Assembly (NCBI RefSeq): GCF_964204645.1
Contig: NC_134025.1
Location: 18,265,101-18,329,100 of the forward strand
DNA length: 64,000 nt
Source of the DNA: Tubulanus polymorphus
Taxonomy: Eukaryota > Animalia > Nemertea
Direction of reading: 5' to 3'
Position numbers and translations under genes: made by a program. This document shows positions 6,500-60,952 of the stretch, in pieces. Under the pieces are notes generated by a model. It saw nothing but the letters and a program-made list of their open reading frames with translations, was not told the origin of the DNA and did no database searches. Positions within the stretch are counted from its first letter, which is position 1; each line of letters opens with the position of its first letter.

Positions 6500-6574
<75 letters not shown>
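6500..6574. repeat. (TA)n microsatellite
   Basis: Perfect TA run, read directly. Confidence 0.98.
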
Positions 6575-6575
<1 letters not shown>

Positions 6576-8239
6576 TAAGATAATGTACGATTAACGGGGC
6601 GTTTGTCTTTTTAATTTCCTTGTTGCGGGGTGGTGAAAAATTACGGGGCATACAAAGTGTCCCGTAATTGTTACACCTTGCAAACGCTCAGAAAATTGTT
6701 CAATCACCCACTTGCAGTCGTAGGCGTAATCGGGTCTGACAAAGATATTTATATATAAAGCAATACAGCAGCCCCATCTGACGGTTAGAACAGATAAGCT
6801 CCGCCCCTTTTTCTACGTCAGAAGTTAGGAGAAACCATCACCTGGCAGAACTCCGGAAGTTCGGGAGAGCCCATACAGAGCAGAGCAGGGTGTACGGCTG
6901 TGTAGTGTGTATATGATTTACACTTACAAACTGCAAGAATCTTCAAGAACATTAAGATATATTTTTTTCCAAAAACGCGTGTTCTCAACACATTGTTCAT
7001 ATGAAATTCATTGGGCAATTAAAATAATCCTTTGCTTCGAGGTTCGGTAGGGTTCATCTCCTACAGCAAACAATGAACTCGACCGATAGGTCAATGCGCA
7101 TGTCCAGTTACTATTCGCGGTGATGCGAGAACATTGAGTCTAAGCCTAGCCAAAAAGGAAAAAGGTAAGCTTTCTTTATTAGTTTGCCGATCTTGCATGT
7201 CCTTTTTACATGTAACATCATTGGAGACATTTATCCATAGGCCAAATGCAGTATATTTCAACTTTTTTAAATGGACGAAGGGTACCATTATGTACTCTGC
7301 TTTAGAGGTACATGCCTTAAAACGACCAGCACGTGCTTTGAACTTAACCGTCGATTCTTTATTCGTTTTACATACACTGCATTGAAGGAATTCTTTTTTA
7401 TGTAAATCGAATAGAGATGGACTTCATTCTTTGATTAGATCAATACAAGTGTATCATTACTGTTTATTGTCCGAAGTATGTATTGCATTGATATTTTGAA
7501 ATCATCAAAACCATGGTTTGCCGACTTGATAAACTCAAAAGTAGTTGTCATTGTCAGAAACCATTTATGGGATATTTAATGATACAAACAAATACGCTTG
7601 ATATGCTTAATAGAATTGTAGGCCATATTGCATAATCATGAAAATCATTTTGTTATCAGGCAGTATTCAGATAGGAAGGTTTTTTCCTTATCTGTAGTTA
7701 GTACCAGGGAACAAATAGAATACAGTCAACCTCGGCTATGCCATCCCCGCTTTATCATTATAAGTGCTTGTTCTTACAATATATTGCTTCCATTCCCTGT
7801 GTGTCTAATTTGTACTCAATAATTCGTAGACCCATTCTCCATTTCTATGTTAGACTATGTATGTAACCCGTATCAGTTGTCGGGAACGTAGACCTACATC
7901 TGTAGTGAAAAGAATATTAACAACTAATTTAGTAATTGAGGTCAGTGGGAAATATGAGTAACTTAGAAGTAATCGCTCAATGTCTAAGTCTAAAGCTTCT
8001 CCATTTAATGATGGCTGGTATTTCGTATTGCTTTCAAGTGTGATAGTAGTTTAAGTTCAAGAGTTTACGTAGACAATCTAAACATCTGTAAACCGGCTAT
8101 TGTACTGGTTATGCACTTAAATCAGTTTATATGGTTGATAATTCATTAGTAGAACTATGGGTTATCTTGTATCCGTACATCACCTAATCTATACTAAAAA
8201 GCCGAGTCCTGAGTGATAGGCAAACACCAAGATTGACTG

Positions 8240-11225
8240 TAGTAAAATCACGTCATGATTACGTAGTGTCTTGATATAATTGATTTTATATGCCACTTAA
8301 ATGAATGCATAATTGGGGGACATGAATATTATAATAACTCTGTGACTAGGTAGTGTCCAGATATGAATAGTTTTATATGCCAATAAACTGAATGTAGATG
8401 TGTAGATACAATTAGTAAAATCACTTCATAATTAGGTAGTGTGTAATATGAATATTATAATAACTCTATGATTAGGTAGTGTCCAGATATGAATAGTTTT
8501 ATATGCCAATAAACTGAATGTAGATGTGTAGATACAATTAGTAAAATCACTTCATAATTAGGTAGTGTGTGATATGATGGGTTTTATATGCTATTTTACT
8601 GCATGTAGAATTGTAGGACATATATAAATAGTAAAATCACTTCATCATTAGGGAGTGTCCAGATATGGTGGGTTTTATATGCCACTTTACTGAATGTAGA
8701 ATTGCGGGACATAATGAATAGTAAAATAACGTCGCGATTATCTAGTGGGCTGATACGAAGGGTTTTTATACGCCACTTAAATGTATGTAAATTTGTAGGA
8801 CATATATGAATAGTAAAATCATTTCATGATTAGGCAGTGTCCTGATATGCTTTTGTATGCCACGCAGCGTAATGTAGAATTACAGGACATATATAAATAA
8901 TATTAGTTCTTAGGTAGAGGGTCAAGATAATTAAAAATCCATAGGAGCAAAAACCATACAAATCGCATTTTGTAATGAGTAATATATATTTATTGTAGCG
9001 AACGTTTTCCGGAGTAACATTATCCCCTCTTCAGGCATAGCGCGCAAGTGATTAAATGTTCATATCATACTGGTATTTATATAGAATAGGACGAAGCTAA
9101 TTACAAACAATTTCAATTAACTGAGTGACAAGATGATTACAATATAAAGATAATTAATTATACACAATCTAAATTACTGAGTGAATATATTTGACTAGTA
9201 GTTAATTATCTAAAAACGTATTATATGAAAATTTAATCACTTGCGCGCTATGCCTGAAGAGGGGATAATGTAACTCCCGAAAACGTTTACTATAATAAAT
9301 ATATATTACTCATTAGAAAATGAGATTTGTATTGTTTTTGCTCCTATGGATTTTTGATAAATAATATTACTGCATGATTGGGTAGTGTCCGGATTTTAAT
9401 GTTTTTATATGCCACTTACTTGAATGTAGAATTGCAGGGCATATTTAAATAGTGAAATAACGCCATGATTATCTAGTGTCCTGACACTAATGGTTTTATA
9501 CGCAACTTAAATGTATGTAGAATTGTAGGACATATACGAATAGTAAAATCACTTCATAATTAGAGAGTGTCCCAATAGGTATGAACGATTTTTTTCATAT
9601 GACATTTAACTGGATGTAGAATTGTAAGACATATATAAATAGTGAAATCACTTCACGATTAGGCAGTGTCCCGATATATGTGCCACTTAATTGGATGTAG
9701 AATTGCAGGACATAATCAAATAGTAAAATAATGGCATGATTATCCATTGTCCTAATATGAATGGTTTTATACGCCACTTAAAATGTATGTAGATTTGTAG
9801 GACATGTACGAATAGTAAAATCATTAGGCAGTGTCCTGATGCCGTAGGTTTTATATGCCACGCAACTGATCATGTACAATTGTAGGACCTACACAAATAG
9901 TAAAATCATTTCAGGATTCGGTAGTGTCCTGACATGAATAGTTTTAAATACCCCCTAAATGAATATAAATTTGATGATGAGTTCTATATGTTGCGAAACT
10001 GATTAAAGAATTGTAGGGCATACATAAATAGTAAAATCACTTCATAATTAGAGTGTCCCAATATAAAGGGTTTTATATTCCACTTAACTGAAGGTAGAAT
10101 TGTAGGACATATATAAATAGTAAAATCACTTCATCATTAGAGAGTGTCCCAATATAAAGGGTTTTATATTCCACTTAACTGAAGGTAGAATTGTAGGACA
10201 TATATAAATAGTAAAATCACTTCATCATTAGAGAGTGTCCCAATATAAAGGGCTTTATATGCCACTTAACTGAAGGTAGAATTGTAGGACATATATAAAT
10301 AGTAAAATCACTTCATCATTAGAGAGTGTCCCAATATAAAGGGTTTTATATTCCACTTAACTGAATGTAGAATTGTAGGACATATATAAATAGTAAAATC
10401 ACTTCATCATTAGAGAGTGTCCCAATATAAAGGGTTTTATATGCCACTTAACTGAATGTAGAATTGTAGGACATATATGAATAGTAAAATCACTTCATAA
10501 TTAGAGAGTGTCCCAATATAAAGGGTTTTATATTCCACTTAACTGAAGGTAGAATTGTAGGACATATATAAATAGTAAAATCACTTCATCATTAGAGAGT
10601 GTCCCAATATAAAGGGTTTTATATGCCACTTAACTGAAGGTAGAATTGTAGGACATATATAAATAGTAAAATCACTTCATAATTAGAGAGTGTCCATTGT
10701 CCTAATATGAATGGTTTTATACGCCACTTAAAATGTATGTAGATTTGTAGGAAATATACGAATAGTAAAATTATCAGGCAGTGTCCTGATGCCGTGGGTT
10801 TATATGCCACGCAACTGAATGTAGAATTGTAAGACATCCACAAATAGCGCCCTGATATGATAGTTTTATATGCCACCTAACTGAATATAAATTTGTACTG
10901 CACTTAGCTGATGCAGTATTGTAAGACATATATAAATAGTAAAATGCTTTATGATTACCGTAGGTAGTTTCTTACGAGTCGAGTTTTCTATGCTGCCTAA
11001 CTAATTATAGATTTGTAGGACATATAAAAATAGTAAAATCACTTCATCATTACGAAATGTGCCAATATGAAGGGTTTTATATGCCAGCGATATAGAATTG
11101 TATATATAGAATTGTAGGACATATGTAGTAATAGACATAAATAGTAAAATCATTTTATGATTAGGTAGTGTCCAGATATGATGGGTTTTATATGCCACAT
11201 AACTGAATGTAGAATTGTAGGACAT
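8240..11225 (+). repeat. 91-bp satellite array, homogeneous core ~10020-10690 with diverged flanks
   Basis: Unit aatagtaaaatcacttcatcattagagagtgtcccaatataaagggttttatatgccacttaactgaa.gtagaattgtaggacatatata recurs at 10116, 10207, 10298 and onward (period 91). Confidence 0.95.
8933..9355. mobile_element. Inverted repeat (~125-bp arms), Penelope pLTR-like, with minimal hammerhead motifs
   Basis: 8933-9057 is the reverse complement of 9231-9355. Each arm contains CTGAAGA-GGGGA..TCCC/G-GAAA-ACGTT. The element interrupts the 91-bp satellite. Confidence 0.7.
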
Positions 11226-11520
11226 GACTAGTACAATCAATGCAAGATTAGATATTGCCCTGATGTAATTATGATCTTTCAAGAACCGGTGCGATTCGTG
11301 AAGTCTCTTTTCTCTGTCATAAATAAGTTTAAGAAGACTTTTTAACAATCCTTCAATACAGTGTTTAAGATGGATACAAAAACGATGTCCGACTGCACAG
11401 TTCTGGCTTGAATGGCATTAGTTTGAAGTATTTGCTCACAAAAGTTACAAATTATCTCGAGAAAACTGATGAAACACAAAAGTGAACAGACTAGCAGTGT
11501 ATGCCTGACATATCTGCATG

Positions 11521-12105
11521 TCCGTTCCTAAATTCTAATTTTTTTTTGGTCTGACATCGATTTTTTGAGTTCCCTATAAACTAAACTTTTCAACACATAC
11601 CGGGTACCTCAATTAGGTCTTAATACGACCAGTGAAACTGTAAGTAAATCATCGTTTTATCCATTTTAAACTGTTTTGCATTGGAGGATTACTAAAAAAA
11701 AGTCTTCTTTAACTCATTTCAATTAGAGAAAATAGACCCCATTTAATGAACTACCGTTACGTAAATCAATTTTAACAATATTTTTCTATGCCTAGGCCCT
11801 TGCCATTTGAAAATGTTTGCAAATTATTCAAAGAAAATCATGGTTCGTAGGCACGGAAACACAAGAAACATCTTAGAATTTCAAAAAATGGCTGATCTTT
11901 TCTGTTTTCGACACGAGAAAATGAAAACCCTTTGGCAATAATTCAATACAGTCTAAAATGGCTATAAAACGAGGATTTATTCAGGCTGCACAGTTACCGT
12001 ACACTGGTCGTTAAGACCAATTTAGGGTATGTGTTCAAAAAGTTAAGCGAAATATCCCAAAAAGATCGATTTCACACGAAAATAAATTAGCCTTATGCCC
12101 GCATC
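11521..12105. mobile_element. Old fold-back/MITE-like element with diverged ~120-bp inverted arms
   Basis: 11521-11645 (..ttttcaacacatac..ggtcttaatacgaccagtg) is an imperfect reverse complement of 11995-12105 (cactggtcgttaagacc..gtatgtgttcaaaaagtt). Confidence 0.55.
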
Positions 12106-12191
12106 TAAAATTGATTAGTGACATAAAGTCGGTATTTAACGGTTTTGTTCGGTATTTAGGGCTACCGGTTAGTTCGTTGCTGCGTTGAAGG

Positions 12192-12250
12192 TAGTCTAGT
12201 ACCTAGCCGTCGTTCTAGGGAACCGGTAACAACGACCGGTATTCAGACTA
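12192..12250 (+). mobile_element. 59-bp mini-MITE with TAGTCT...AGACTA ends and a 9-bp TSD
   Basis: Flanked by CGTTGAAGG at 12183-12191 and 12251-12259. Confidence 0.85.
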
Positions 12251-12582
12251 CGTTGAAGGTCGTTGCTGCGTTGTAAACAACCGGTGGACGTGCAATATTT
12301 TCATTACTACATTTACGCCCGTTTCATTAAAATTCTGGCTACAAAATTTCTTATATTGACATACATTGTACCGCATTTCTAATCAGGATTGCAGAAAACG
12401 CTAAATTCATTTACACACACATTCAACTATACTTATAGGCCTATAGTACACCAGCACTAGCACATTGGATGTGAGTAACCTGTCCTTGTTAGTATTTAGT
12501 AATCGGTTGGTGGTAAGCTATTATCTAATAAAATAAAGGCCTCCTCCCAGCTAATCCCTGATGGCCTGAATACCATCTGACC

Positions 12583-12684
12583 TAGTACTAGTCTGAACAG
12601 ACTGTAACAACTGCTGTTCAACAGTTGTTGTTACGGTTCCCTACCTACAACCTGTTTGGAAAACAACGGCTAGGTACTAGACTA
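12583..12684 (-). mobile_element. 102-bp copy of the same mini-MITE family, opposite orientation, 9-bp TSD
   Basis: Flanked by CATCTGACC at 12574-12582 and 12685-12693. Its reverse complement starts TAGTCTAGTACCTAGCCGT, like the copy at 12192. Confidence 0.85.
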
Positions 12685-13452
12685 CATCTGACCTTACTAG
12701 TAGTATTAGGCCCTATCTCTAGTCTTGACCGAGTCATCTCAGATAGGCTTGTAATTTGTACTTTTACTGCTAACGTTGATAATATCCAGAACTTAGAGAG
12801 GCCCTAGAGTATATACAAATAGGCCTACAAATACCTACCGGTATAGGAATTGTCGTGGTTTGTAAAACAGTCCGATCATCATAGAAACCAAACCTGATGT
12901 GCTGACTGATATTCCGCGCTACAGGCTGATACTTTTACCACTGCACAGTAGGCTACAGCTAACCTGCTGAATCAGCCTAGATTATAATCCAAATACCGGT
13001 ACCAACCTGTCATTGTTACAGGTTCATTGTAGGACATGGACCGGCCTATAGCCATGCCTGCTTATTAATTAGTTTCACTTATTTAGGCCCCCTAGTAGTA
13101 GGCCTATAGTGATACAGAATTCTAGCATATTTAGGCCTTGAAGCTTGGAACTAAGCACCGGTGTTGCACAATGAATTTTTTCTTTATTGTATATTTTTGA
13201 CAGCCAATTTTTGTAATTTATATCAAGTGCTACTGCTATTGATATGATATGCAGTGACGTGGCCGTTGGTCTAAATGGTTTTTTTTTGCAAAAATCAATC
13301 GCTTAATTCTTTTTTATTTTTTTTATGTTTCAAGGTGAGGATTTGTGTTCTGCCCAATTTGCAGTATTAATATCTCGGTTAATAGGGCAAAGATACAAAT
13401 AAGCCTGCCCATTATCATAGCACCTTATTCTTGGTTGTATTTTTCAGGTGAG

Positions 13453-16264
13453 ATGCCGAGACGCATGACACCAAGTCAGGTGGCTCTTGAATTTATTAAA
13501 TTTGGCAAAGATCCAGAAGAGGCATTCGAAAAAAAAGTTGTCAATAGCGAAATAGGTAGGCTAAATTATACCTAAATGGAATGTTTTAACCCTATCAAAC
13601 CCTAACCCTCCTGACCTTCTAGACCCCAACCCTATCCTAAACCTAATGAGGCCTATAGGCCGAGAAGTGTTTTTGATATATAATGAGGACAACATAATCT
13701 TTAGCCCACTTGGGACTTAAGTCCCAGTGGACTATTGCGTTCACTTTTCATCTGTCGTCCGTTTGTCCATAGACGGAATCAAGTTCTTTTGGGAAGTTTT
13801 GAAGTCGCTTCAATGGATTGTCTTGATCTTTAGTTTTTACATGTATCTAGATACATCTTCTGCCCGAAAACTGGCCTGATCAGAATCAAGATGGCCGACT
13901 GGTTGCCATTGTTGTTCAGAAAAATCAGCACTTTTTACATATTTTTGATGTTATTAAGGGAAATTTTGAAACCCTTTGATCAATTATCTTGATCATTCAC
14001 ATCTGTTTGTATCCCCGGTGCATCAGCATAAGAAAAATTGTGTAGATCAGACTTAACATGGCCATCATGTGACCTTTTTTATGCCCAAGGTCATTTTTGG
14101 CCTGAATTCCGAGATCTGGTTATACTATGAGAAGGGCTCTTACACAGGCCTATCAGACAGATACTTTGATCAGTCAAGCGTGATGCAATCAGTGACCATC
14201 TTCGTGTCATCAGTCCTCAGAAAAAGGTTTTTGAAGGAAACTATGGACAAGTTTTGACTTATAGTCTTGATATTTGATATAGGCCTATAGTATCGCTGTC
14301 ATAGTATTCATCTCCTCACGTGGAATTGGGGTTACCCGGGTTTTTGTTCTCACCACCAGGGAGAGTTGAATATAGAATTACATACAGAATTACAGAATTG
14401 GTACCTATTGATATTTTGTATGAGTTTCAAGGTCATTGGTATGGTAACCACAATGAATGGCAAAATTGTATCTTGTGACATATTCTATGATTATGGGGCC
14501 GATTCTTTTATGCAGTCCGTATTCTCCGGATTGAATATCCTGATTTGTGCATAATGGAATAGTTGTTGAGAATCAAAATGGCGGCTTCCGTAACTTTTCT
14601 GAGTTTTAGGAGGCAAAATTCATGCGTCGCCATTTTGTCACGTGGTCTCTCCGCAATCACACCGGTCGACAGATTGGAGAGAATGGACTCTCCGAACTCT
14701 CCAGAAATAGTCACCTGATCAATAAAAGAATGGAAATGGAGCGTCCGGATTATCCGTACTGCATAAAAGAATCGGCCCTAGGCCACCAGGGGCATTGAAG
14801 AGCTAAATAACTTTTATTATATTATATTAGTATTTTCATATTGTATTGGTCTTGGTCATATTGTATTTTGTAACCACAATCAATTACAAAATTGTAGCTC
14901 ATGACATGTTCCATCATTGATTGTGGTGAGTTGTAAGGTCATTGCTTTCTTAATATGTTCACCAGGGGGCGTTGAATATTCCGTTTGTTAAGCATTTCTA
15001 ACCAATTCCCAAGTGGGCGTGGTGTCCCTGGACCACTAGTTTACTAAATTACTGCTGCATCTGTATGATATCCACTTTTTTATAGAATATCTGTTGTGTC
15101 AGTCCGTAGACAGAATCCAGTTATTTTGGGAAGTTTAGAAAACACATGGATTGATGTTTGGTTTATACATATATTACCCTGAAACACCTACAGCCCAAAG
15201 ACTGGTCCTGTCAGAATCAAGATGGCAGATTTCTGTTTGCCGAAATCAGCATTTTTACAGATTTTGATGTTTTAAAGGGAAATCTTTTAAGACGCTTCAA
15301 TTATCTTGATCTTTCAAATAATATTTTTAATGCCCAGGGGCCCATCAGCATTAAAACAATTGAGTTGATCAGACACAAGAAGTCCGTCCTGTGACCTTTT
15401 TGGTGCCCATATAGCTCAAAAATCTCAGTCTGAAATCCTCAAAAACCTATATCGGTAGCTTCCTTGACTTAATAGCAGAAACTGAGTATTTCCATATCAT
15501 ACCTATTAATACATTGGCATATTTTGTTACCACAATACATAGTAAAGACATAAATAAACAATCAATGCAAAATTTATGTCATGGTTTCTGTAGTTCACCA
15601 GACGTTGAATATTAACATTTCCAGATGGTTGAGCATTTCAAACCTTTTCTCATCTGGGCATGGTGTCCCTGGACCCTAGGTTTTAATGTAGGACCTGAAG
15701 GAATGGTTTTTAATCAAAGATAATACTTTTTTCTGATTAAGGATATGGATTATTCACAAAGAAAGCAGTTTGTAGAGGGGATTTTTTGGTGGAATATCGT
15801 GGGCTACTCCGTGATGTGAAGGAAATCGGGGATGACGATACATATGTCTTTGAATTTCAAGACAAAAAGTTCAGTTCTCTGTGGTATGTAGGTCTATTGA
15901 TTTTCTAACCAGATATTGCCCATCAGGCTACTTAGTTTACACTTTAACTAAAATAAGTCATTCAAAGCCTAACTGTTACCTGTAGGCCTGTATCATAATT
16001 TGATACCACCCATCTTCTTAAAGTATATTAGGCCTAATTGAATACTCTAAATATGACTTTTACCATTTCAGCATTGATGCCTCAATTGATGATGGTAGTT
16101 TGGGACGGCTCATCAATGATGGGTGGGGTGGCAAAGAAAACTGTAAAGCCAAAACCGTCATATCTGAAGGAAGGCCCCATATTGCATTTTTTGCTATTAA
16201 GGACATACCCCCCAAAACAGAATTGCGGTATGATTACGGGGTGACTGATTATTGGTGGAGACAG
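13453..16264 (+). CDS. SET-domain exons (SETD8/PR-Set7-like) of the multidomain gene
   Basis: IGYGLFTKKAVCRGDFLVEYRG ... CIDASIDDGSLGRLIND ... FFAIKDIPPKTELRYDYG..YWWR contains the GxG, EYxG, RxxN and ELxYDY SET motifs. Confidence 0.9.
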
Positions 16265-19200
16265 GTAAATTATGATGATTTATTTTCATCCAATTTTGTT
16301 GCAGCGAAGCTCTCATTCAGTTAGAACCTTACCCTCCCCTTCACCATACATCCATACTTTTTGTATACGCTTTAGTGCCTTATAGTAACAACCTCTAATG
16401 CAAGCATTTGTGCATCAAAGAATTAGCCCTAAGTTCAAAGCTTGTAATTTTTATCAGAATGACGACTGAAGTTGTCAATTGAAAAAAAAGTATCGTGAAC
16501 ATAACCTCAATATCTCCAATTATCCTTGACAGCGGGTCCCGAGAAGAAAGCAGTTTATGATTCGTAACGCTTGTCTTTATTAATGAATTATCAGTAAATG
16601 ATTTATGCTGGTGTTGAAAAAATTAAACTTTGGTTATGAGTTACGATGGTCCAACATCAATGATCATACTACATGGAGTATGGTGCATACAGCAGTTTAT
16701 AAATGCAAACCCCCTCCCATACACAACCATAGACATTTTAATACAAATTTTCAAACCCCCTCACCCTTCTCTGTGTGTATGTACTGATCCTAAGAACATC
16801 GACTGATCAATTTCTTAATCACGATAAAAGTTCCTCTACAACTAATCATTGTACTATAGATACGCCGTGTAGTATCTTTGTTTCTACTGATGCATTTGGG
16901 TACCATATTGTATTTCTGTGCTGCATGAATGAGCTACATTTGCTTATTTGCTGATTTCTTCACTGCTTCCATTATGCCATTCTGGAAAATTATTTTTGTA
17001 TTCAACATATAAATAGGCTTCTAACAAAAAAGAACTTAATGCCTCAGGTAAGCTTGTTAACCTGTTGGGATTAAAATTTTCTAGATTGAGTCAAACTTGC
17101 AAAGTACACCCAGCATGCTGAAGCTTGCGATTGTCATTAGGCCTATGTAGATGGAATTTGGTTTAAGCATGGAGAATAAAAGCAAAATGAGTCTATCATA
17201 TTCAAATGTAAATTTCAGATTTGCCTTGCATTTCATGGCTTACATAAAAACTTGCTGTATACAGGCTACATTTGCACCATGAGATTTTCTTCATGTACTG
17301 TGTGTGATAACTGTGCATGAATCTGAATTGAGGGTGTCTATCAGGAATATGTGTTAATTCTGCGGTTAATAAATATCATTGGACTTTGAAGATAAGATAG
17401 GTTATGTTAGATGCAACTTGCTTCTTATAGGTATGCCCTATGATGGTAGATGATTCATTTTCATACACCAACGACCATAAACTATCATTACCCAATTTGT
17501 ATAAGTGAATGATACAGTATTGGCTTAGAAGCATTAGGTTGGAACACAACCAAGGGCGGGTAGTTGAATTATGCCTTTTATTATGCACATATAAATCCAG
17601 CTTGCATCCACCCCTCAGAAATGTTGCTCTTTTTCTCTATAAGATTTGTATGTCCATAAACTCAGTTTATACATTTACCGGTATACTTTGTTGAGCCGTC
17701 CACCAGAACAGCAGAAATAGACGAATTTGAATCATTTTGCATGTGATAGGCCTAACCTTATATATATTCTAACCTTATATATATTCTATATATATATATC
17801 TGTTGTATGCTTTTCAATTTTTATGGTTCCCTTTTGTTTCATTGAATTATCTCATAATGCATATTTTAGATAATGAGCAATGTTAAGCATGTATTCTTTG
17901 TGTAAAAAAACTTAGGTTCAGTCCTATTGGCCACCCACCATGATAAATGTTTTGTTTTAAGGTGAATACTATACAGTGTTATAATTTCCTGATGGTCTAA
18001 GTATGTATCGTTTGATAAAAATATATTTTTAACATCAATGAAATTGGTTATTATTTATGTTAGAAATAATCCATTCTCATGAAGTAAACATGATCTTTGA
18101 AATGCATGCAGGGGCGTATCAAGCGGGTGGTCTCGAAGGTCTAGACTCGTGCCTTCCCTTTGAAGTTGCCCTTCGTACAGAGATAACTTAAACCTATAAA
18201 TTTAACATCTCAGAAATTTCATCTTTAAGGGTTGATTTATTCAAAAGTGTATCTAACCCTAGATGGAGGGACCCCCCTTAACGAATTTGATATGGCTGCT
18301 TTAACCGAAAATGCCTCGTATTTACTTTTTGAACCCGCCTTGCAATTTTCCTATTTCTACCCTTGGCAGGTAATTTGATTTCTTTCCCTACAAATTGAAC
18401 GGTAGGATTGGAAAAAAGACAGTAACCAGGCATACATGTTTTGTCGATTTTTTACTTTCTCTTGACACACTCAAAATGAGGTTGATATAAAACCATGTAA
18501 TTTTCATGGATCACATTCAAGATGGTCTACTGGCAACATGTAAGCCTATATTTTGGGAAATTACCTACTCTAGGTATTGTATTAACACCCTGTAATTTCA
18601 TTTTCAAGATAATGTATTGACTTCCAAGTCTTTTCGTCAACACAAATCTGGTGAAAAAAAAAATCATGATTCTTGTTCTGGTAAGTAAACTCATGAAATA
18701 ACTTAAGCTTGTATAATGCAGTAATAATTGGCAGCAGATTGCTGTATCATTGTATCTGTCATTTGATTTTCTAGATAATGTATTGACGAGTAAATGTTCC
18801 AGTGATGATTCAAAACAAGTTTCTGAATTCACGTGTTCTGGTAAGTTTACTCATTATGTAAATTTTTAGCTTGTATAATGCAGTAATAGTGGTCAACAGG
18901 TTGCTGTATCATTGTATCCGTCATTTGATTTTCTAGATAATGTATTGACGAGTAAATGTTCCAGTGATGATTCAAAACAAGTTTCTGAATTCACGTGTTC
19001 TGGTAAGTTTACTCATTATGTAACTTTTTAGCTTGTATAATGCAGTAATAGTGGTCAACAGGTTGCTGTATCATTGTATCCGTCATTTGATTTTCTAGAT
19101 AATGTATTGACGAGTAAATGTTCCAGTGATGATTCAAAACAAGTTTCTGAATTCACGTGTTCTGGTAAGTTTACTCATTATGTAACTTTTTAGCTTGTAT

Positions 19201-22200
19201 AATGCAGTAATAGTGGTCAACAGGTTGCTGTATCATTGTATCCGTCATTTGATTTTCTAGATAATGTATTGACGAGTAAATGTTCCAGTGATGATTCAAA
19301 ACAAGTTTCTGAATTCACGTGTTCTGGTAAGTTTACTCATTATGTAACGTTTTAGCTTGTATAATGCAGTAATAGTGGTCAACAGGTTGCTGTATCATTG
19401 TATCCGTCATTTGATTTTCTAGATAATGTATTGACGAGTAAATGTTCCAGTGATGATTCAAAACAAGTTTCTGAATTCACGTGTTCTGGTAAGTTTACTC
19501 ATTATGTAACTTTTTAGCTTGTATAATGCAGTAATAGTGGTCAGCAGGTTGCTGTATCATTGTATCCGTCATTTGATTTTCTAGATAATGTATTGACGAG
19601 TAAATGTTCCAGTGATGATTCAAAACAAGTTTCTGAATTCACGTGTTCTGGTAAGTTTACTCATTATGTAACTTTTTAGCTTGTATAATGCAGTAATAGT
19701 GGTCAGCAGGTTGCTGTATCATTGTATCCGTCATTTGATTTTCTAGATAATGTATTGACGAGTAAATGTTCCAGTGATGATTCAAAACAAGTTTCTGAAT
19801 TCACGTGTTCTGGTAAGTTTACTCATTATGTAACGTTTTAGCTTGAATAATGCAGTAAAAGTGGTCAACAGGTTGCTGTATCATTGTATCCGTCATTAGA
19901 TTTTCTAGATAATGAATTGACGAGTAAATGTTCCAGTGATGATTCAAAACAAGTTTCTGAATTCACGTGTTCTGGTAAGTTTACTCATTATGTAACTTTT
20001 TAGCTTGTATAATGCAGTAATAGTGGTCAACAGGTTGCTGTATCATTGTATCCGTCATTTGATTTTCTAGATAATGTATTGACGAGTAAATGTTCCAGTG
20101 ATGATTCAAAACAAGTTTCTGAATTCACGTGTTCTGGTAAGTTTACTCATTATGTAACTTTTTAGCTTGTATAATGCAGTAATAGTGGTCAGCAGGTTGC
20201 TGTATCATTGTATCCGTCATTTGATTTTCTAGATAATGTATTGACGAGTAAATGTTCCAGTGATGATTCAAAACAAGTTTCTGAATTCACGTGTTCTGGT
20301 AAGTTTACTCATTATGTAACGTTTTAGCTTGAATAATGCAGTAAAAGTGGTCATCAGGTTGCTGTATCATTGTATCCGTCATTAGATTTTCTAGATAATG
20401 AATTGACGAGTAAATGTTCCAGTGATGATTCAAAACAAGTTTCTGAATTCACGTGTTCTGGTAAGTTTACTCATTATGTAACTTTTTAGCTTGTATAATG
20501 CAGTAATAGTGGTCAACAGGTTGCTGTATCATTGTATCCGTCATTTGATTTTCTAGATAATGTATTGACGAGTAAATGTTCCAGTGATGATTCAAAACAA
20601 GTTTCTGAATTCACGTGTTCTGGTAAGTTTACTCATTATGTAACTTTTTAGCTTGTATAATGCAGTAATAGTGGTCAACAGGTTGCTGTATCATTGTATC
20701 TGTCATTTTATTTTACAGATATTTCATTGATTCGTGAGTGTTCTGGTGAAAAGAAAATTTCTGAATTCACAGTTTCTGGTAAATAAACTCTATTTCTCTA
20801 TTCATATGTGTTAAAAGTTCTATATTTAGTAAAGGGGCATATAAAACCTATCCTACCTTAATGAGAAAAGATTCACCATATGTCCTACAATTCTCCATTT
20901 ACTTAAGTGGCATATAAAACCATTCACATCAGGACACTATCTAATCATTAAATAATTTTACTATTTATGTATGTCCTACAATTCTGTACTTGGTTAAGTA
21001 GTATATATAACCCATCATATCTGGTCACTACCTAATTGTGAAGTGATTTTACTGTCTATATATGTCCTACAATTCTACATTCAGTTAGGTGGCATATAAA
21101 ACCCTTCATATTGGGACACTCTCTAATGATGAAGTGATTTTACTATTCATATATGTCCTACAATTCTACATTCAGTTAGGTGGCATATAAAACCCACAAT
21201 ATCTGGATACTGCCTAATGATGAAGTGATTTTACTACCTATGCATATCTTACAATTCTACATTCAGCATATAAATCCCATATCAGGACACTATCCCAAAC
21301 CCAATATCCTTTTCAAACAAGTTGAAATAGACCTTTCCTGTTCATGAAGAATTTGAACAATTTTATGCATCACAATTCTATGTTACATTATAATCTAATA
21401 CATTATATCACCATTGCATGCTTTACTTATGTTATGTTGCAATAATTGTCAGGTTGCTGTATCATTATATCTGTCATTTGATTTTCAAGATAATGTATTG
21501 ATGTGATGATATAAAGAAAGTTTCTGAATTTACCTGCTCTGGTAAATTAACGTATTGCATAATTCTTTAACTTGTAACATGCAGCAATAATTGTCACCAT
21601 ATCATTTATTTTTCAAGATGATGCATTGACATGTGGCCCTTCTGGTGATGTTGACAATGATTCTGAATCCACCTGTTCTGGTAAGATAACACTTGTTTGC
21701 ATAAGCAGTTATAGTTGTTCACAATTTAATAGCTGTATCGATGATATCTACCGTATTTATGCAGTTACTGATAGTTACATAGCTTTATTATTCACAAGAT
21801 GCACATTTCCAATAATCAGCTATTTGAATGATTGAACATCAATGAGCTGCCAATATAGTTATCTTTGGAATTTGTTTTATTCCCAAAATTGGACTAGCTA
21901 ACACTACTTACCCACTGATAATTGAAATATATATTTTCTTCAAATAGTTTTTGAGATGTTTTGGCTTTTCTCTACTTTTAGAATTTTCAGATGGCGAGGA
22001 ATTACTTGAATCTTCGATATCTCAAGCTATAATAAGTACGTTACATTTGAAGTGTACTATACCTTTAAACCTGGTTTTTGTTCATCCTAAACATTCATAT
22101 TTTGTGAGTGTAAGGAAAACGATCGACTTGCAAGATAATGCCTTGCGAGAAGAAAGTCAAAATGCAATCGGTCTTCAGAGAGTGAAATCATGTAAAAGTG

Positions 22201-25200
22201 GTTTCCCTTCTTTTGTGGGTGGGGATTAGAGCACATTGTACGAACTTTTGTCTTTCAAGGAGCACATACTTTGTGGACAAGACATGTCCTAAAATGCATC
22301 AAAAACTGTGATATAAAAATAAATTGCAATCCATATTACTTTACACTCCCTATTTCATAAAAAATATCCTTCGGTCGTTGAAAGTGTTGAGCATAGCTTG
22401 TGTCATTAACACGTAGATACTAAGGGGGAGGGTCAATGCCGAAAAATTATGCCAGTATGGATAATTGAAATAATTGAAACTAATCTATTTAGGTTTTCTG
22501 CCACATGACTATGATAGCGATGAAGAATTACCATTTTTTTATGAAAACAAGGAGGGAACCTGCGGTAAGTGAACGTTATGATCTTATCTACCTTAAAAAG
22601 GTGCATATTAACTGAAAAATCTTACACATTAACTGAAAAATCTTGTTCTAAAGTTGTATTAGGCATATTGCGTTCTAGTGTCAATTGTCCATCCATAGGT
22701 AGAATCAAAGCATTTTAGGAAGCTTTGGAGATATTTTAAAGGATTGTCTTAATACATGTATCTAGTACTTTTGAGACAACTGCAGCTCAAAAACTGGTCT
22801 TATCAGATTCAAGATATGTGACCAACAGCATTTGTTCAACAAAAGTTTTCATGGAGAACTTGTTTGATGTTTGGTATATATAATATATGTATCTCTGCCC
22901 AGAGCCTATTACTACTGGAAAAATTGGATCAATCAGAGGAAAATGGCGTAGTCTCTGTAGTAGTCTCTGTAATCTGTAGTCTCAATTTCTAGATCTTTAG
23001 ATATGTTTGGATCAGGCAAATTTTGAGTCATCTTAGTCTCACCAGTCCTCGCTCATGGTTGGAATGGTTTTTTTTTTAAGGAGGGTACCAACAATTTTAA
23101 CTTGTTATTTATGTTGTTGTTATTTATGTTGAATTTGTTTTGTTGAATAGAAATTATCCGATATTGTTCTCCCCACTAGGATTAATTTGAACATTGAAAT
23201 TTACTTTGGAAATTTGAAATTTACTTTGGAACCATTCAGTTTTGTACCTATTATCTATTGCAAAGTGAAAAAGCACATGAAATTTTCTGTCATTTCATTG
23301 ATTTTCATGGAAAATAGTTTGTGTATTCGCACCAGCAGGAATTGAACATTGAAGTATTGTTAGACAGAGGTTAGAGTGATAAAAACTTGTAGTCCAATGA
23401 TGCCTTCAAAAATAACATGAAATAACGCAAAGATGTTATCAATGTATGTGAATATTAATTCAACAGTTTCTACGAGGTCAAAAAGTCAAAAATTCAGTTC
23501 AGTAGGATATTTGTTTTTTAGATATTGGATTTAGATACAACTTTGACAAGATTTTTATTGAGAAGCCGGAAAATTGACTTTTGATTGTATTGAATTGGGT
23601 ACATGTAAAATGGCTAGGTCTACCAGATTTGATTTAAATTCATAAGAATAGATCTGCAACACCAAACATGTTAAATTTTGGTGGTAGTTTCCTAGGTATT
23701 CATTAACACTTGATAGATGTCTTTTATTTTATCTTCAGCTACTACCACTATTGATTACTCAAACATTCTGAAGATGCTCACTCTGAGTGCACAGAAAAGC
23801 TATGAGAATCTGAAAACTACTGTTGGCTATTTTGCAAGTAGGATACGGGAACTTGAGTATAAGTGTTTGGACAGAAAACTGATGGTACATGGCAGGTCAT
23901 TAGAAATTATGCAGAAATGTGGTGATATGGTAAATGGGGTGCTCATGCCTGCAGATGTATCTGGTGATGGTAACTGTTTGTTCAATGCAGTATCAGTCGG
24001 TCTTTGTGGGTGTGAAGATCTAGCAACTGAACTTCGTGTTCGCACTTGTATCGAAATGGTTGAGAATTCTGACTTCTATCAAACTCGAAGTATCGAATTT
24101 GGATTCGATTTGATTTCACCATCCTTCGCAGATGCATGTATTGCTTGTGCAATACACAACAGTTATTCTTCGATGCTGACAATACAGGCACTCGCAACAG
24201 TTATTGATAGGAGGATAAGATCAGTATACCCCTCGGTTAATGGGTTATTGGATAATCGTGTGCCTATAATGAACCATATATTAAATCCAAGAAAAAATTT
24301 GACTGGCACATTGAGGCAAGCACCTTTACTCGTAATGTGGACTACACATTCAGAACTTAAACCTGGACACTGGAATCCGGATCATTTTGCCCCTTTACTG
24401 CCAAAAGATGTATTTGAACCGAAAGCTGGAACCTCTTCACAACAGGATGCAATTATAAAGAAAAAAAGGCAAATTGACTCATCTGACTCTGAAGATCAGT
24501 CAATTGATGTTGACATTCCAAAAAAGCGGAAAAAAAGAAAATGTATATCAGATTCTGAAGATGATTACATTCCTGATGACGATCTATGTGATAGTGATGA
24601 TGATAATCTCCATGAAATTGATCCAAATGATAACGATATTGAGGAAGAAGACTTTGGAGATTATCTGTCAAGACTGTCGGCTCATTTGAAACATGTTACT
24701 GTTCCGACATACCAGTCAGTAGATGGCAAGCGGGACTACCGAAAGGCAGATTATTGTTTGTATTGTAAGCGTGTGTTTACTTCGAAAATATCCTCGCATT
24801 TGTGCAGTATTCACGCGTCTGAACCAGAAATTATAAAGTACCATCTGATACGCGATCCAAATGAAAAAAAAAAACATATGCGCTTACTTCAGAATGAAGG
24901 AAACTTTCGGCACAATTGTAAAGTGATAAAAGAAGGACATGGTACGTTGGTCGTTGTCCGTAGACCCAATAAAACGGATAAACCACCAAATGCAGTGGAC
25001 TACGTACCATGCGAATTTTGTAAGGGTTTTTTCTACAAGGGATGCCTTTCCGAGCATGCGACACGTTGCCACTTCAAACCAATGGCAAAACAACCAGACA
25101 TCAATTACATAAGAACCTCTCGAAACATGCTATCACCATTTGTACCAAGAATCGATGAGGATACGGTTGCATTAAACTTGATATTCAGCAGAATGCGAGA

Positions 25201-28200
25201 AACAGTTGCAAACCCTGGCATTCCTGGCATTTGCGAAAAAGACGAATTAATTGGTGAATTTGCTTTGTCATTGTACTCGCGTTTAGGCACTGCAAAGGAG
25301 CAGCGCCGAAAAGACCTAGCAAACTTGAGAACAAAGGTCCGTTTACTCGGTATGCTACTGAAAGCCCTGAACGAGAACAATGGCGAAGAAAACTGGATAT
25401 CGCTTTCCTCGTACCTGAGAGGGCCACATTTCCATCAGATAGTCAAATGTGTTAAGAAGTTAGCTTTGGAAAAAGATTCCCCGAGTGTGGCAATAAATTT
25501 GGGGATTTACATCAAACATTGCATTGTCCTCAAAATGAGCATGGGGATTTTTGAAGGAGACAAAATTATGCAAGAAGAGGGAAGAGATTTCGAAGTAGTT
25601 TATCGGGCCCATTGGAACAATACTGTTTCGTGTGTTGCTAATCGAAGGATTAAACTTAGGAAACTCAATCAAGGCAATACACATCCAGTGGCAGATGACT
25701 TAGTAGTCTTTAAAGATTGGCTCGACTCTGAAATTGATAAAGCGTTGATGATACATGAGCCTACTTCAAAACAGTGGAAACATCTTGCTTATGCTGTTCT
25801 TGTCCGTATAGTCCTTTTCAACCGAAGGCGGATATCAGAAGTGGAAGAAATGATCATGAGCGATTTCGAAAATATTGTGCCGGATGCCGATCAGAATCAA
25901 GAGATCCTGCAATCACTGTCTCTAGCTGAGCAGCTTTTGGTCAAACGGTAATTGTTGTTTTAAAATTGTCTTAGTCATATGCTCTTATCTAATTTACAAG
26001 ATATGTTGGGTTGATTTTGGAGAGTTTTTTGTAGAATGCGTGTAATAGAAATCCGAGGGAAGAGCACTCGCAGTATTCGAGGTGTATACATTCTGCTTAC
26101 TGAGAAGATGGTTAAAGCTATCGAACATATCCTCGATACCAGACAAAGTACAAGTGACTTCATTTTTGCTAGGTAACATCAATTCTGAAATCAATTAGAC
26201 TTGTGGCATTCTATTTAGCATGTATAAAAGACGTGTATAAAAGACGTGTATATAGCGTGTATAATAAGAACATTCAACAACGTATATCTGTTGACATTGA
26301 CAATTTGGATAGATTTTACTTCTATCCATCTTCAGCGATTTAGAAGAGTTTTTATATAACTCTGAAGATGGATAGAAGTCTATCTGAAATGTCAGTGTAA
26401 AGTTTCACAGATAAAGCTATGTGGGTCTTTCTAGGAAGAATGCTATTTTCTGATTTATACAGTGTTTGCACTTTCCTATTCAAATAACATTAACCCATTA
26501 ACAATTGCAATACGGATTTTGAATGTTTCTTGAATGGATTCGATTAATGCAAGGTTTATTTTATTATTATTAAGGTACAATCATTCCCTTTTTGAATGTC
26601 AATTGATTAATAGTCCTGATAAAAATCTTAATCTCTCATCACAACTGATATAGTTTTGTTCGTGGGCATCTACATGCTGAATAATCAAATAAGTTAGTGC
26701 TTACCAGGCCATGCAGCCATTTTTTAGAAAAATGTCTTTGTATACAGTATATACTTTTTTTAGTTCATATCGTGACAGGTTTTGTGCAAGCATTGCAAAT
26801 CCATCATTCATTTTAGGAAACGTGCTGACACACCACTTGACGGTTGTACTGCAACGCGTGAAATGACAAAATTGTGTCCCGGACTGAATGCACCTGAACG
26901 AATTAGATCGACGAAGCTCCGATCTTTCTTTGCAACTACACTACAAGTAGGTTTATCATTTACCAATGAACTAGGATTAGTCTTATTGCAAGCATTACAA
27001 ACCTCTTTAAAATACAAACCACAGTATTACAATTATAAATGTTGTATATTTATATTACCTGATTAATAACCTGACAATTTAAGACTACATGTATATGGGG
27101 GATTTTTTTCTGTCTTCCTGATATCAGGTGTTATCTATATTCAAAGGAATCATTAGGTTAATTACTTACTGAAATTTAGAGGGCATGTGACCGTTAAGGT
27201 CATGTAATCATCTAGACAGTACTTGATCATGAAAGGATTTTCCCATTATATATATATCCTACAATTCTACATGCAGTAAAATAGCATATTAAACCCATCA
27301 TATCAGAACACTACCTATTTATGAAGTGTCTATTTATGTATGTCCCACAATTCTACATCCAGTTAAGTGACATATAAAACCCATCATATCAAGACACTAC
27401 CTGACCATGAAGTGATTTTTCCTATTTATGTATGTCCCACAATTCTACATTCAGTTAACCAGTATATAAAACCTATCATAAAAGGATGACAAGTGATAAT
27501 AGACAAGTGCTGATATCGGATCCTGTATAGGCCTAAAACATCCGTATCAGGACATACCTTATCATGAAGTGCTTTTACATGTACTATCATACAAGCCTAA
27601 TTTCCAGCCCTGTATGTATTAGTGAATGAAATTTTTAAGAATATAAAATAGAACCTTCATTCATCAAGAATATCTATAAAGAAGGTAAAGCTCTGGTCTT
27701 CGAAAGACATAACAAGCAATGATTATAATAAATCAATGATCGGCTATAATGATACTTGTGAATGGAAATTATATTGTGAAGTGATTTGAAATGGATGAAA
27801 GCCCTAAAGCCAGTATTTGGGTTTATAACTTCAGATTTTGTCTATGAAGCCCAACGAGTTGAAGATGGTGGCTGATCATATGGGGCACGATGTGAAAATT
27901 CACGCAGATGTATATTGCCTCCAATCTTCACTCGTTGAAAAAGCGAAGGTAGCGAAGGTGCTATTGGCTGCCGAAAATGGCATTATGGCAAGATTCAAAG
28001 GAAAGTCATTGGAGGATATTGATCCCGATGGTAAGTCTGACTTTACTGATAGATTAAATATTTTAGTATTCTCTGCTATGACAGCAGTCACCCGTGTGTG
28101 TGTATGTGTACATGTGCATTTATTCATTGATAACGTTTTAGCACTCCCATTATCCTTGGATTATGCCGATAAGTGGACTGAGTGTGAAGACAGTGAAAAC

Positions 28201-28632
28201 AGTGATGACAGTGATGACAATGACATGGTCGATGCAGAAGTTCCGCCAAAGATGGAAACTAACCAATCTGAAGCGCAAAGTAAGTTCATGGATAGGGTCC
28301 ATAGTGATTAAACCACCTTATGGACGGTATAACAATCCTAGGGGAAATGGGGCCTATTGTGAGAACCTATCAGTAGTCTTGATGCAATGGTTTGTGTAGC
28401 ATTTTTATATGATTTTGTTTCAGATGAGAAGTCACGTATTAAGAGGGCACCCTGGACAAAGGGAGAAACAGATATTTTTTGTAAGATATTGCATAACTAT
28501 TTGAATAATAAGCGAATGGCACCAGCAGTAGACTTGAGAAAAGTAGTTGAAGAACTTGGTGGTAGCCGAACTTTGCCTCAGGTTCGAACGAGGCTACATA
28601 ATATTATCTCGAAGAAGCAGAAAACGAAATAA
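13453..28632 (+). CDS. Spliced multidomain protein (~1,530 aa): SET - microexon repeats - OTU protease - Zn fingers - tyrosine recombinase - Myb/SANT-like
   Basis: Manually joined, phase-compatible GT-AG exons: 13453-13555, 15742-15883, 16072-16264, 17017-17047, 18609-18680, 12 x 66 nt (18775 + 162n, to 20622), 20719-20778, 21618-21680, 21982-22035, 22493-22564, 23739-25947, 26035-26172, 26817-26946, 27835-28030, 28142-28279, 28424-28632. Total 4602 nt with no internal stop. The SET and OTU-YR blocks are well supported; the small linker exons are less certain. Confidence 0.8.
13700..15042 (-). mobile_element. Near full-length HINE-like family B element in intron 1; a second partial copy at ~15090-15682
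   Basis: Begins tttagcccacttgggacttaagtcccagtgg (hairpin) and ends tcccaagtgggcgtggtgtccctggaccactagttt. The subterminal IR is gcccacttggga/tcccaagtgggc. Reverse of 53815-55017. Confidence 0.7.
14496..14778. mobile_element. MITE nested in the family B element (Harbinger-like GGGCC ends)
   Basis: GGGCCGATTCTTTTATGCAGT ... ACTGCATAAAAGAATCGGCCC form 21-bp perfect TIRs that extend imperfectly. The TSD is unclear. Confidence 0.8.
18609..20778 (+). repeat. 162-bp tandem array: 12 near-identical copies of a 66-nt exon plus 96-nt intron, with diverged end copies
   Basis: Each unit is ttttctAG|ataatgtattg...gtgttctg|GTAAGT and encodes DNVLTSKCSSDDSKQVSEFTCS in phase 1-1. Exon starts are 18775, 18937 ... 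20557. Confidence 0.93.
20875..21295 (-). repeat. 91-bp satellite copies (reverse orientation) in an intron
   Basis: tatatgtcctacaattctacattcagtta.gtggcatataaaaccc is the reverse complement of the 8240-11225 unit. Confidence 0.9.
23739..25947 (+). CDS. Large exon: OTU-like protease, acidic/NLS linker, C2H2 and C2HC fingers, N-terminal part of the tyrosine recombinase
   Basis: SGDGNCLFNAVS...WNPDHFAPL (OTU Cys and His boxes, vertnin-like), PKKRKKRK, CLYC..HLCSIH, CEFC..HATRC, LFNRRRISE. 744-aa ORF without stops. Confidence 0.92.
26035..28632 (+). CDS. Tyrosine recombinase catalytic exons and Myb/SANT-like C-terminus
   Basis: EIRGKSTRSIRGVYILL; FIFAR; IRSTKLRSFFAT; VADHMGHDVKIHADVY; final exon KRAPWTKGETDIF...RTLPQVRTRLHN, TAA at 28630-28632. 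Confidence 0.88.
26295..26400. ncRNA. Degenerate minimal hammerhead ribozyme pair (Penelope-like relic) in an intron
   Basis: act-CTGAAGA-tgGATAGaagtCTATCt-GAAA-tGTC-agt at 26359-26396, with an inverted copy immediately upstream (acttctatccatcttcag). Confidence 0.5.
27250..27590 (-). repeat. 91-bp satellite copies (reverse orientation) in an intron
   Basis: gtatgtcccacaattctacat.cagttaa...atataaaaccca units. Confidence 0.85.
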
Positions 28633-30145
28633 TATAGGGAACCTCTAAATGTATGGCGTAAATATACTGTCAAAATTAAAATAGCATTTTTGACGCGTCA
28701 ATCGATGCGTCAAATTCACTTTATTTATGTTTTGTAATAATTACGTTATTGTTTAGCTGTAGCAAGAACGTACATATAGAACATAGTATTGATTGTTTTG
28801 CCATGCGAGTGAGTTTTGGAGAAAGTTGGACATGCATATATAATGCACCAAGATAGCGATCGTAAATCCGAGAAAAATACATTTTTTCGCTCAAAACTAA
28901 AATTTACTCATTTGGTCGTACTGGACCCATGGTCCTAATTAAAGATATGTGAAACTTTGTTTTTGCCACTAAGCACTGTGCCCAATGTAAATAATATCTA
29001 TATATTGATATTCCGTATGTGGAGTTTTCTTTCAATGATTGCTTGTTTTTGTTCTGATCGATTTCTCCTTTTATTAAAGCGCAATGATTACTGTTTAGAA
29101 GAAAATGTTTAAACAAAATCAAATATATTACCGGTATATAAATTGTTAAAGCAGTAAATGAAAAATGACCGATCTGAATAAATGTTAGAATTTCCCTCAT
29201 GCCAGTCTTACACCTGTTATAGAAATGTAATGAACTAGATTACAGGAGAAAATGTGGAGAAGGTTTTTTTTTTAATGATGTGAACATAAGTAAATGGTGT
29301 ATTTTTGTAGACTAATCTCATTCCTATCAGGTATATTTGTTGTAGGCCATTGATTTCAGGTTGAGAACATAATGATTAAAAAATGTGATTAGTTTCTGTT
29401 TTATCTGCAGTTGACAAAATATCATACAATCCAATGACTACCGGTATAACATATTTGATTTGGGATAGTAAACGCATCGAGTTCCAGGTCAGCTAATCTT
29501 TACACAATTCTTATGAAACATAGCATGAATTTCCATATTGGAACTTGAATTATCGCCTAACTGAAATAACGAAAATCACTGGTCCTAAATGATTTGAGTC
29601 AGAAGGTATCGACTGTATTTTGAATGTATGACATGAATAATATTAAAATATTCCATTGGCAGAATATCCAACTTCCTCGTGGTTTACAATTCTAGGGTTG
29701 ATAAATATATCAGAATTATCTTGTAGAGTTTGTAAATTTGCTAATGCTTTTTTCCTAATAAAGAGATTTCCAATTTTCATTGAAAATTTTGTTTTGTTTC
29801 TGTTGTCAGATGTATCTGGATATTGAAAGCTTTGAAAGGACTTTCATTCCCTCAATTAGAGCCATATTTCAAAAATGTGAATAGAAGTGAAGAGTAGAGA
29901 ATATTCCGACAAAGCAAGGAGAAATATGGAAGTTGTATACCTTACTTGGACGAAGCTCTGTAGGAAAGCCTATCGCAATTGTTATGAATCGACCCAGACC
30001 TGTTAGAACCGACTGTTGCCCGGTCGCTTACAATAGAATAGGCAGTGAGATAATTCGCTGTTTAGTAATGTCTAAGCGTTTGGCCTCAGGTATTCCACAC
30101 GAAGGGCATAGTTTCAGTTATGTTACATGTATAGGTGCATGTATT

Positions 30146-30317
30146 TAATTCATGGGGCATATAGGCCTATATAAATTGTGAGGTTTGCATATCATTAGCA
30201 TATAATTATACATATATGCCCCAGAAACGTATATAATTCATGGGGCATATAGGCCTATATAAATTGTGAGGTTTGCATATCATTAGCATATAATTATACA
30301 TATATGCCCCAGAAACG
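30146..30317. repeat. Perfect tandem duplication (~87-bp period) with internal IR, followed by a TA microsatellite at ~30383-30441
   Basis: taattcatggggcatataggcctatataaattgtgagg...tatatgccccagaaacg occurs twice; ggggcatata/tatatgcccc are inverted. Confidence 0.85.
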
Positions 30318-30391
30318 GGTATTAAAATAGCACCACACAATTGGGTTTGAGCCCACAAACCCCGTTAATAGTATGTTTTCAGTATATATAT

Positions 30392-30441
<50 letters not shown>

Positions 30442-37450: not shown

Positions 37451-37489
37451 TGAGATATGTTGCAAATTGTTTTTGTTTATGATTTCAGG

Positions 37490-57086: not shown

Positions 57087-57287
57087 TTTGAAAACTTGTG
57101 GAGGGTGCTGGCACCTGGGGACTGAGGCCAGGACAACAGCACAAACTAACAAAACGAAATGACGTAATTGAAAAAATTAAGAAATCAACACTTATTCACA
57201 TTTTTCTTCATCCAGAATTTATTAATTATTTATCATGGAAAGCACGAAGATTTGAAATATACGTTGGAAAACCATCAAAAATAAATA

Positions 57288-60720: not shown

Positions 60721-60952
60721 TTTTTCTGCCTGAAATTTGGGTAACCTATACATGTTACACACACGCAATCAATCGCAATATTTTGGTGGATTTCACATTT
60801 AGTGGATCATTTTAACCATTTTACTCCATTACATATCATTATTCCTGAAAGATATTTTCCTTTTCACGTGACAGCTTAGAAGATCAACACATGGACTTGA
60901 ATGATGAGGGGAAACGAGAATTAAAGATCAGAATATTGATTATTTTGCCATA

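Follow-up and report, generated by a model that had tools for sequence, protein, structure and literature searches.

The 64,000-nucleotide window of the Tubulanus polymorphus genome analyzed here (Nemertea; RefSeq assembly GCF_964204645.1, contig NC_134025.1, positions 18,265,101 to 18,329,100 of the forward strand; all coordinates below are those of the window) contains a probable whole tyrosine-recombinase DNA transposon of about 23.8 kb (6575..30382, + strand). Inside it, a tandem repeat of 162-bp units lies between exons for a SET domain and exons for an OTU domain and a recombinase. We interpret this array as the tandem duplication of a 66-nt symmetric exon together with its intron within the transposon's gene, likely serving as a low-constraint spacer of a predicted SET-linker-OTU-recombinase protein, a reading to which we assign a probability of about 0.6. 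Its observed basis consists of the anatomy of the units, the fact that RefSeq models use them in frame, the domains encoded downstream (OTU and recombinase), and the repeat-filled linker found at the same place in related proteins.

Anatomy of the exon array

Tandem Repeats Finder (TRF) reports a period of 162 at 18674-20721 (12.7 copies, 97% matches), and a scripted scan of 18609-21680 resolved 16 blocks running from AG to GT, comprising 12 near-identical units and four diverged copies. The units occupy 18775..20622 on the + strand and start at 18775+162n, each pairing a 66-nt exon of phase 1-1 with a 96-nt intron behind the donor CTG/GTAAGT. The exon has no stop in phase 1 and encodes 22 amino acids rich in Ser, Asp, Lys and Cys. 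These findings bear out the 162-bp units with a phase 1-1 exon and a GTAAGT donor that a sequence-only reading of this DNA had described. The exon sequence given there holds for 10 of the 12 units, which encode DNVL, while the two starting at 19909 and 20395 encode DNEL instead. At 66 nt, the exon exceeds the usual cut-offs for microexons. The DNEL units are the eighth and the eleventh and have five variants in common, which mark a 486-bp higher-order duplication. Each of them also has an additional AG 9 nt 5′ of the acceptor (19900-19908 and 20386-20394) that would give three more in-frame codons or promote skipping.

The diverged copies lie on the same strand. Those of 72 nt (unit 0, 18609..18680), 60 nt (20719..20778) and 63 nt (21618..21680) are symmetric and open in phase 1, as had been proposed, and the copy of 52 nt (21490..21541) carries a 14-nt deletion and stops. 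The donor reads GTAAAT in the 60-nt and 52-nt copies and GTAAGA in the 63-nt copy. An acceptor, an open exon of length 3n and a donor are all present in 15 of the 16 copies, the combination by which we recognize a tandem array of symmetric exons. The array is open in phase 1 only; read in phase 0, a stop is hit at codon 4 in all six copy types translated. Two acidic phase 1-1 linker exons that are not related to the unit follow on the + strand (21982-22035, 54 nt, and 22493-22564, 72 nt), and phase 1 is carried from the array through to the acceptor at 23739, where it fits the exons further downstream.

Of 20,000 shuffled units, 12 combined a strong donor with a pyrimidine-rich acceptor and an open, symmetric exon. 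For the diverged copies, a neutral simulation gave P = 0.006 that at least three of four would keep their length modulo 3 and an open frame, under an assumed indel-length law and with copies located by their conserved ends, a bias toward intact ones. The sequence-only reading had taken the kept lengths and open frames to suggest selection for coding. The exon sequence itself is no more conserved than its surroundings: identity to the core unit is 57-69% for the diverged exons and 46-93% for their intron flanks. The 12 identical units represent one recent event and give no extra evidence of selection. The array may have begun with an ancestral phase 1-1 exon that was duplicated a few times and diverged, one copy being later amplified 12-fold, presumably by unequal exchange. 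With 22 codons in each unit, gains, losses and skips would preserve the frame, and selection would act on the frame and the splice signals, not on the sequence.

The OTU-recombinase gene and its RefSeq models

Downstream of the array, six exons on the + strand (23739-25947, 26035-26172, 26817-26946, 27835-28030, 28142-28279 and 28424-28632; gene span 23739..28632) encode an OTU domain, a zinc finger, a tyrosine recombinase and a Myb-like domain, the last label being weak (E about 0.07). OTU and Phage_integrase both score above their Pfam cut-offs (PF00589 with 29.7 bits against 27.1), and the best match of the recombinase among solved structures is XerH (fold E 9e-4). Across 15 sequences, R888, K936, R1008 and H1034 are invariant and Y1043 is conserved in at least 90%; we take these to be the catalytic residues, following the tyrosine-recombinase (YR) motif. 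A C-terminal helical domain is confidently folded in the AlphaFold model. The low confidence of residues 1-205 (pLDDT <50) was not used as a sign of disorder, given that the OTU domain, barely covered by the alignment, also falls below 50.

The open reading frame (ORF) at 23717-25951 matches RefSeq proteins of T. polymorphus, which form a cluster of seven near-identical models on five contigs of differing length. Five of the seven reach the array, and the remaining two begin downstream of it. The five splice three, four, four, five and four units in frame, followed by in-frame exons of 60, 63, 54 and 72 nt, in agreement with the proposal that the units are exons. The 52-nt copy, which had been called dead and in need of skipping, is left out of all five; its inclusion would end the protein at 469 aa by our computation. 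XP_074662711.1 is identical to the exons of the window from the 60-nt copy through the stop, and each of the five models compared shows 0-4 substitutions relative to the window once the divergent ends are set aside.

The number of units in these models (three to five, none encoding DNEL) would also fit a mostly intronic satellite, in which an ancestral exon was passively amplified and splicing retains few units or just the diverged copies at the flanks. At 96 nt, the introns are short; the 12 identical units stem from a single recent event, and the element bears other satellites that are non-coding. We nevertheless regard such a satellite as improbable. The donors of all 12 units and the acceptors of 10 of them equal those of the units used in the models, which leaves no sequence reason for the others to be neglected, and short-read annotation would be expected to merge identical units. 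The models do look collapsed.

A repeat-prone linker in related proteins

The recombinase core belongs to a family with 6077 matches at E values up to 0.001, and its hosts include nemerteans, molluscs, sea urchin and fish (nine named among the ten looked up). We examined the best 150 matches less the query, that is, 149 of the 6077. Among these, 14 carry SET, 47 a tandem peptide repeat and one OTU; SET is absent from the other 135 records, many of which are partial. Three of the 14 SET-bearing relatives were concatenated models and were dropped. Tandem peptide repeats lie between SET and the recombinase in nine of the 11 intact ones, and the other two have none. The linker repeats score 48-322, compared with shuffle maxima of up to 16.5 and recombinase cores of at most 12. 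They are mutually unrelated, with periods of 14-66 aa in linkers of 68-705 aa. Among SET-bearing relatives, a fused linker prone to repeats is thus common, and comparison of the repeats indicates that they arose independently. In the metagenomic locus L004, a single open frame of 1066 codons spans SET, a 1.8-kb stretch of an 18-bp repeat and the sequence up to the zinc finger; of the nine metagenome loci, this is the only one in which SET occurs together with a linker repeat. None of the nine, most of which are too short, showed an array of exons and introns upstream of the recombinase.

The Tubulanus copy resembles the SET-linker-recombinase proteins of fish, sea urchin and molluscs, annotated as uncharacterized, in its recombinase core, its SET type and its repeat-rich linker. 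It differs from them in the added OTU domain and in linker repeats built of exon-intron units of phase 1-1, which depend on a bridge for their frame. No publication describing an element with SET plus a recombinase turned up in the literature searched, which did not extend to Repbase Reports or subscription papers.

The sequence-only reading had gone further and suggested that exon skipping or copy-number change tunes the length of the linker. Regulated changes of this kind, setting linker length and hence the activity of the protein, are permitted by symmetric exons; among the relatives, isoform annotation reaches X12 and X13 and the fish protein P0124 has mosaic repeat orders, and the PEVK segment of titin offers a precedent (PMC6469411). 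However, the linkers of the relatives vary widely in length and hold unrelated repeats or, in two of 11, none, and one repeat is a minisatellite within an exon. Since the exons of the array are no better conserved than its introns, the array is better explained as a near-neutral spacer than by tuned skipping. Our analyses yielded no evidence in support of length tuning, and we think an adaptive role of this kind improbable.

Two observations on the repeats of the relatives may be added. The 18-bp coding minisatellite of L004 (L004:1729-3508) has about 98 copies, all within an exon, and a second simple repeat lies downstream (L004:10235-10593). In the fish proteins P0059, P0124 and P0154, the linker repeats begin at the end of SET and finish in Q/K, like phase 0-0 exons, which hints that exon-based linker repeats may have arisen more than once.

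From SET to the array

Upstream of the array, three exons on the + strand (13453-13555, 15742-15883 and 16072-16264) encode a KMT5A-like SET domain (Pfam SET, E 4e-14). The solved structures nearest to the SET profile of the family are those of KMT5A/SETD8, and the SET type of the family is seen in the 39% identity between the window's SET and that of a pipefish relative. Across residues 1-146 of XP_074653171.1, the exons of the window are the same sequence. The third exon ends in phase 0, so that no direct in-frame join to the phase-1 array can be made, a point overlooked in the sequence-only reading. Between unit 0 and the OTU exon, the phase-1 frame of the array contains no Met, and its preservation therefore needs an entry from upstream. 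The linker between SET and OTU envisaged by the sequence-only reading accords with the repeat linkers common among SET-bearing relatives, but the direct SET junction is out of frame and would need a bridge that is not annotated.

A predicted exon of 31 nt at 17017..17047 (+ strand), unannotated, would carry the frame from the phase 0 of SET into the phase 1 of the array. The 2.3-kb intron has six donors scoring at least 6.5, and the strongest of them, CAG/GTAAGC at 17047, closes this open exon. With the exon included, 27 GT-AG exons give by computation a stop-free product of 1533 aa in a SET-linker-OTU-recombinase frame, whose predicted linker of 381 aa is 24% Ser, 20% Asp/Glu and 8% Cys. Skipping of the exon leads instead to the 149-aa RefSeq protein, in which SET reads three codons of a unit before it stops; 22 junctions lie beyond this stop, and the array becomes the 3′ untranslated region (UTR) of a message that is likely sensitive to nonsense-mediated decay (NMD), since junctions behind a stop as a rule make a message NMD-sensitive. 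Resampled introns yielded such a bridge in 3, 19 and 214 of 1000 cases at donor scores of 12, 10 and 7, respectively; these values are post hoc, the exon having been found by eye and with a relaxed acceptor score. A strict acceptor-score scan for exons between SET and the array found none.

Several observations weigh against a single protein in which the array serves as spacer. The sole T. polymorphus SET model found, XP_074653171.1 (149 aa), ends in WWRQ-IMY-stop, out of frame with the array. A SET-fused T. polymorphus protein was neither among the candidates of 1303-3720 aa, which is weak evidence, nor among the SET matches, and the single relative of the 149 that carries OTU has no SET. The bridging exon has a pyrimidine-poor acceptor and occurs in none of the RefSeq models. 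Those models include at most five of the 12 units, none of them encoding DNEL, and take their N-termini from intronic or out-of-frame ATGs, which makes the RefSeq annotation within the array unreliable. The five models are not independent, their copies being ~99% identical, and it is in these predicted proteins that the unit-to-unit junctions are seen. The last 15 nt of the 72-nt copy, read in a different frame, begin XP_074652770.1. A search for longer homologs returned a distant Adineta protein only.

Within the window, I-M-Y-stop right after an AG occurs only at the acceptors of the array (12 sites), which shows that RefSeq splices SET to a unit out of frame. This could be the genuine arrangement, SET being always a protein of 149 aa, the first units exons of a 3′ UTR, and the OTU-recombinase a second ORF that starts separately in or after the array, so that the units would form no SET-OTU linker. 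RefSeq annotates two genes, its SET model joins a unit acceptor in phase 0, and the closest relative, from Lineus longissimus, is modelled with 853 aa and without SET. Yet the phase-1 frame, lacking a Met up to the OTU exon, would still need an entry from upstream; a bridge with a very strong donor is present, and relatives fuse SET to the recombinase. We consider two separate ORFs unlikely and favor the array as the spacer of one predicted protein.

Within this spacer reading, the 31-nt exon might act as a frame switch, a possibility that we advance tentatively. Its inclusion would make the array code for the spacer of a methyltransferase-deubiquitinase-recombinase mobilizing a 24-kb (TA)n-targeting transposon. 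Were it skipped, the array would instead serve as the 22-junction 3′ UTR of a message for a SET-only protein. If the switch is real, the element would bring along chromatin-modifying enzymes of its own and use splicing to govern when it transposes, much as the P element controls its transposition by splicing. A regulated 31-nt exon would then provide a case of splicing control over a Crypton-type element.

At the position where canonical SET domains carry the NHS motif, the domain at 13453-16264 reads RLIND and its fish relatives read RLVND.

Boundaries and classification of the element

Runs of (TA)n at 6500-6574 and 30383-30441 flank the 23.8 kb, and the ends of the element align as an imperfect inverted repeat; runs and inverted ends together lie within 6500-6660 and 30300-30441. 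The core of the inverted ends, TTAACGGGG, is present in the 64 kb as a single forward copy (6591) and a single reversed one (30360), 17 and 15 nt inside the (TA)n runs. The runs and the inverted ends, as seen in this one copy and not mentioned in the sequence-only reading, probably delimit the element, which would thus be inserted in a (TA)n microsatellite. With its dispersed near-identical copies, it appears to be a young, multi-copy DNA transposon of the YR class and of Crypton type in the broad sense. A Pfam scan of the six ORFs of at least 100 aa in 6575-30382 found SET and OTU and no reverse transcriptase (RT), a result that does not exclude short or spliced genes.

Some CryptonV families insert specifically in microsatellites (PMC8869645, citing Repbase Rep. 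2012 12:2034), and CryptonV elements are likewise tyrosine-recombinase DNA transposons of animals. The element may be called CryptonV-like on the basis of this published description, not of CryptonV sequence. SET, OTU and exon arrays are absent from the description in the available part of PMC8869645; in PMC5753468 and PMC4455052 CryptonV appears merely as a table entry. CryptonA and CryptonI are described as having no terminal repeats and no C-terminal domain, with DUF3504 in CryptonA (PMC3212892, PMC13465315, as far as these texts were available). The element does not fit these descriptions, given its imperfect inverted ends, its C-terminal helical domain and the absence of a DUF3504 match. 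A viral origin was not supported either: 29 pattern matches in viral contigs gave no confirmed case, and the viral fold matches are generic integrases with 11-16% identity. Recombinases of nimaviruses are described in PMC10871703.

Parallels in known systems

Tandem exon duplications are reported in 7-17% of metazoan genes (PMC3342872), and exon-intron satellites are already known, in SmPoMuc and in titin PEVK; new here are their occurrence in a transposon and the frame switch that may go with it. The closest likeness in the descriptions available is to SmPoMuc of Schistosoma mansoni, a multi-copy gene family in which a small exon and its introns form a homogenized repeat of up to 20 units, >93% identical, with repeat number varying among transcripts (PMC2576457). 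The SmPoMuc unit measures 1 kb, contains an exon of 27 bp and belongs to a host mucin gene (PMC2576457). The Tubulanus unit measures 162 bp, contains an exon of 66 nt and belongs to a transposon gene, and no homology is implied. Titin PEVK shares the short repetitive exons and a low-complexity segment of variable length; its mechanical function is known and its alternative splicing documented (PMC6469411), whereas for the Tubulanus array both would be conjecture. The micro-exon genes (MEGs) of schistosomes, as described in PMC8293314, are similar in their serial symmetric exons, which can be skipped without frameshift. MEG exons, however, do not exceed 36 bp and encode parasite proteins that are exposed to the host (PMC8293314), whereas the Tubulanus exons are 60-72 nt copies of one unit; their length exceeds the MEG definition, and we rejected membership among the MEGs.

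The array suggests how a unit of exon and intron may act like a satellite inside a transposon that seems to be active, while the frame of the gene stays intact. It would also explain why repeat masking and short-read annotation split genes of this kind, as RefSeq has done here with two genes that have odd starts and stops. More broadly, the 6077 matches point to a large and thinly described family of animal tyrosine recombinases that carries SET and seems to have repeatedly grown repeats at the same place.

Other features of the window

A weak candidate for a further phase 1-1 exon, of 18 nt, lies at 18522..18539 (+ strand) and is in none of the RefSeq models. A non-coding 91-bp minisatellite occupies 20878..21266 in a 711-nt intron and recurs at 8322-11200 and 27210-27480, thus at three sites within the element and in both orientations; one of its arrays splits the exon array. 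A 429-bp element with inverted arms of 141 nt (8930-9358) sits within the minisatellite at 8322-11200.

Beyond the element, a degenerate second copy of the recombinase with stops lies at 37486-38442; it is 33% identical to the main protein and represents an older relative. At 31486-35800 there is a broken multi-exon transposase-like gene with the motifs DDKA, HDF and TDGGPDHR, by which we presume it to be Zator-like; a part of it (34872-35496) is repeated at 2665-2970 and 57277-57883. Two zf-C4H2 (ZC4H2-like) segments on the - strand, at 41008-41415 and 55575-55922, match overlapping parts of the profile and represent either one host gene that is partly duplicated or two copies. A frameshifted remnant of a LINE-like reverse transcriptase (RVT_1) is present at 43219-46110, and the N-terminus of a pogo/Tc5-type transposase (HTH_psq, HTH_Tnp_Tc5) at 52417-52980 (- strand). 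The segments 47955-49699 and 50770-51571 recur at 60952-63527 with 91-95% identity.

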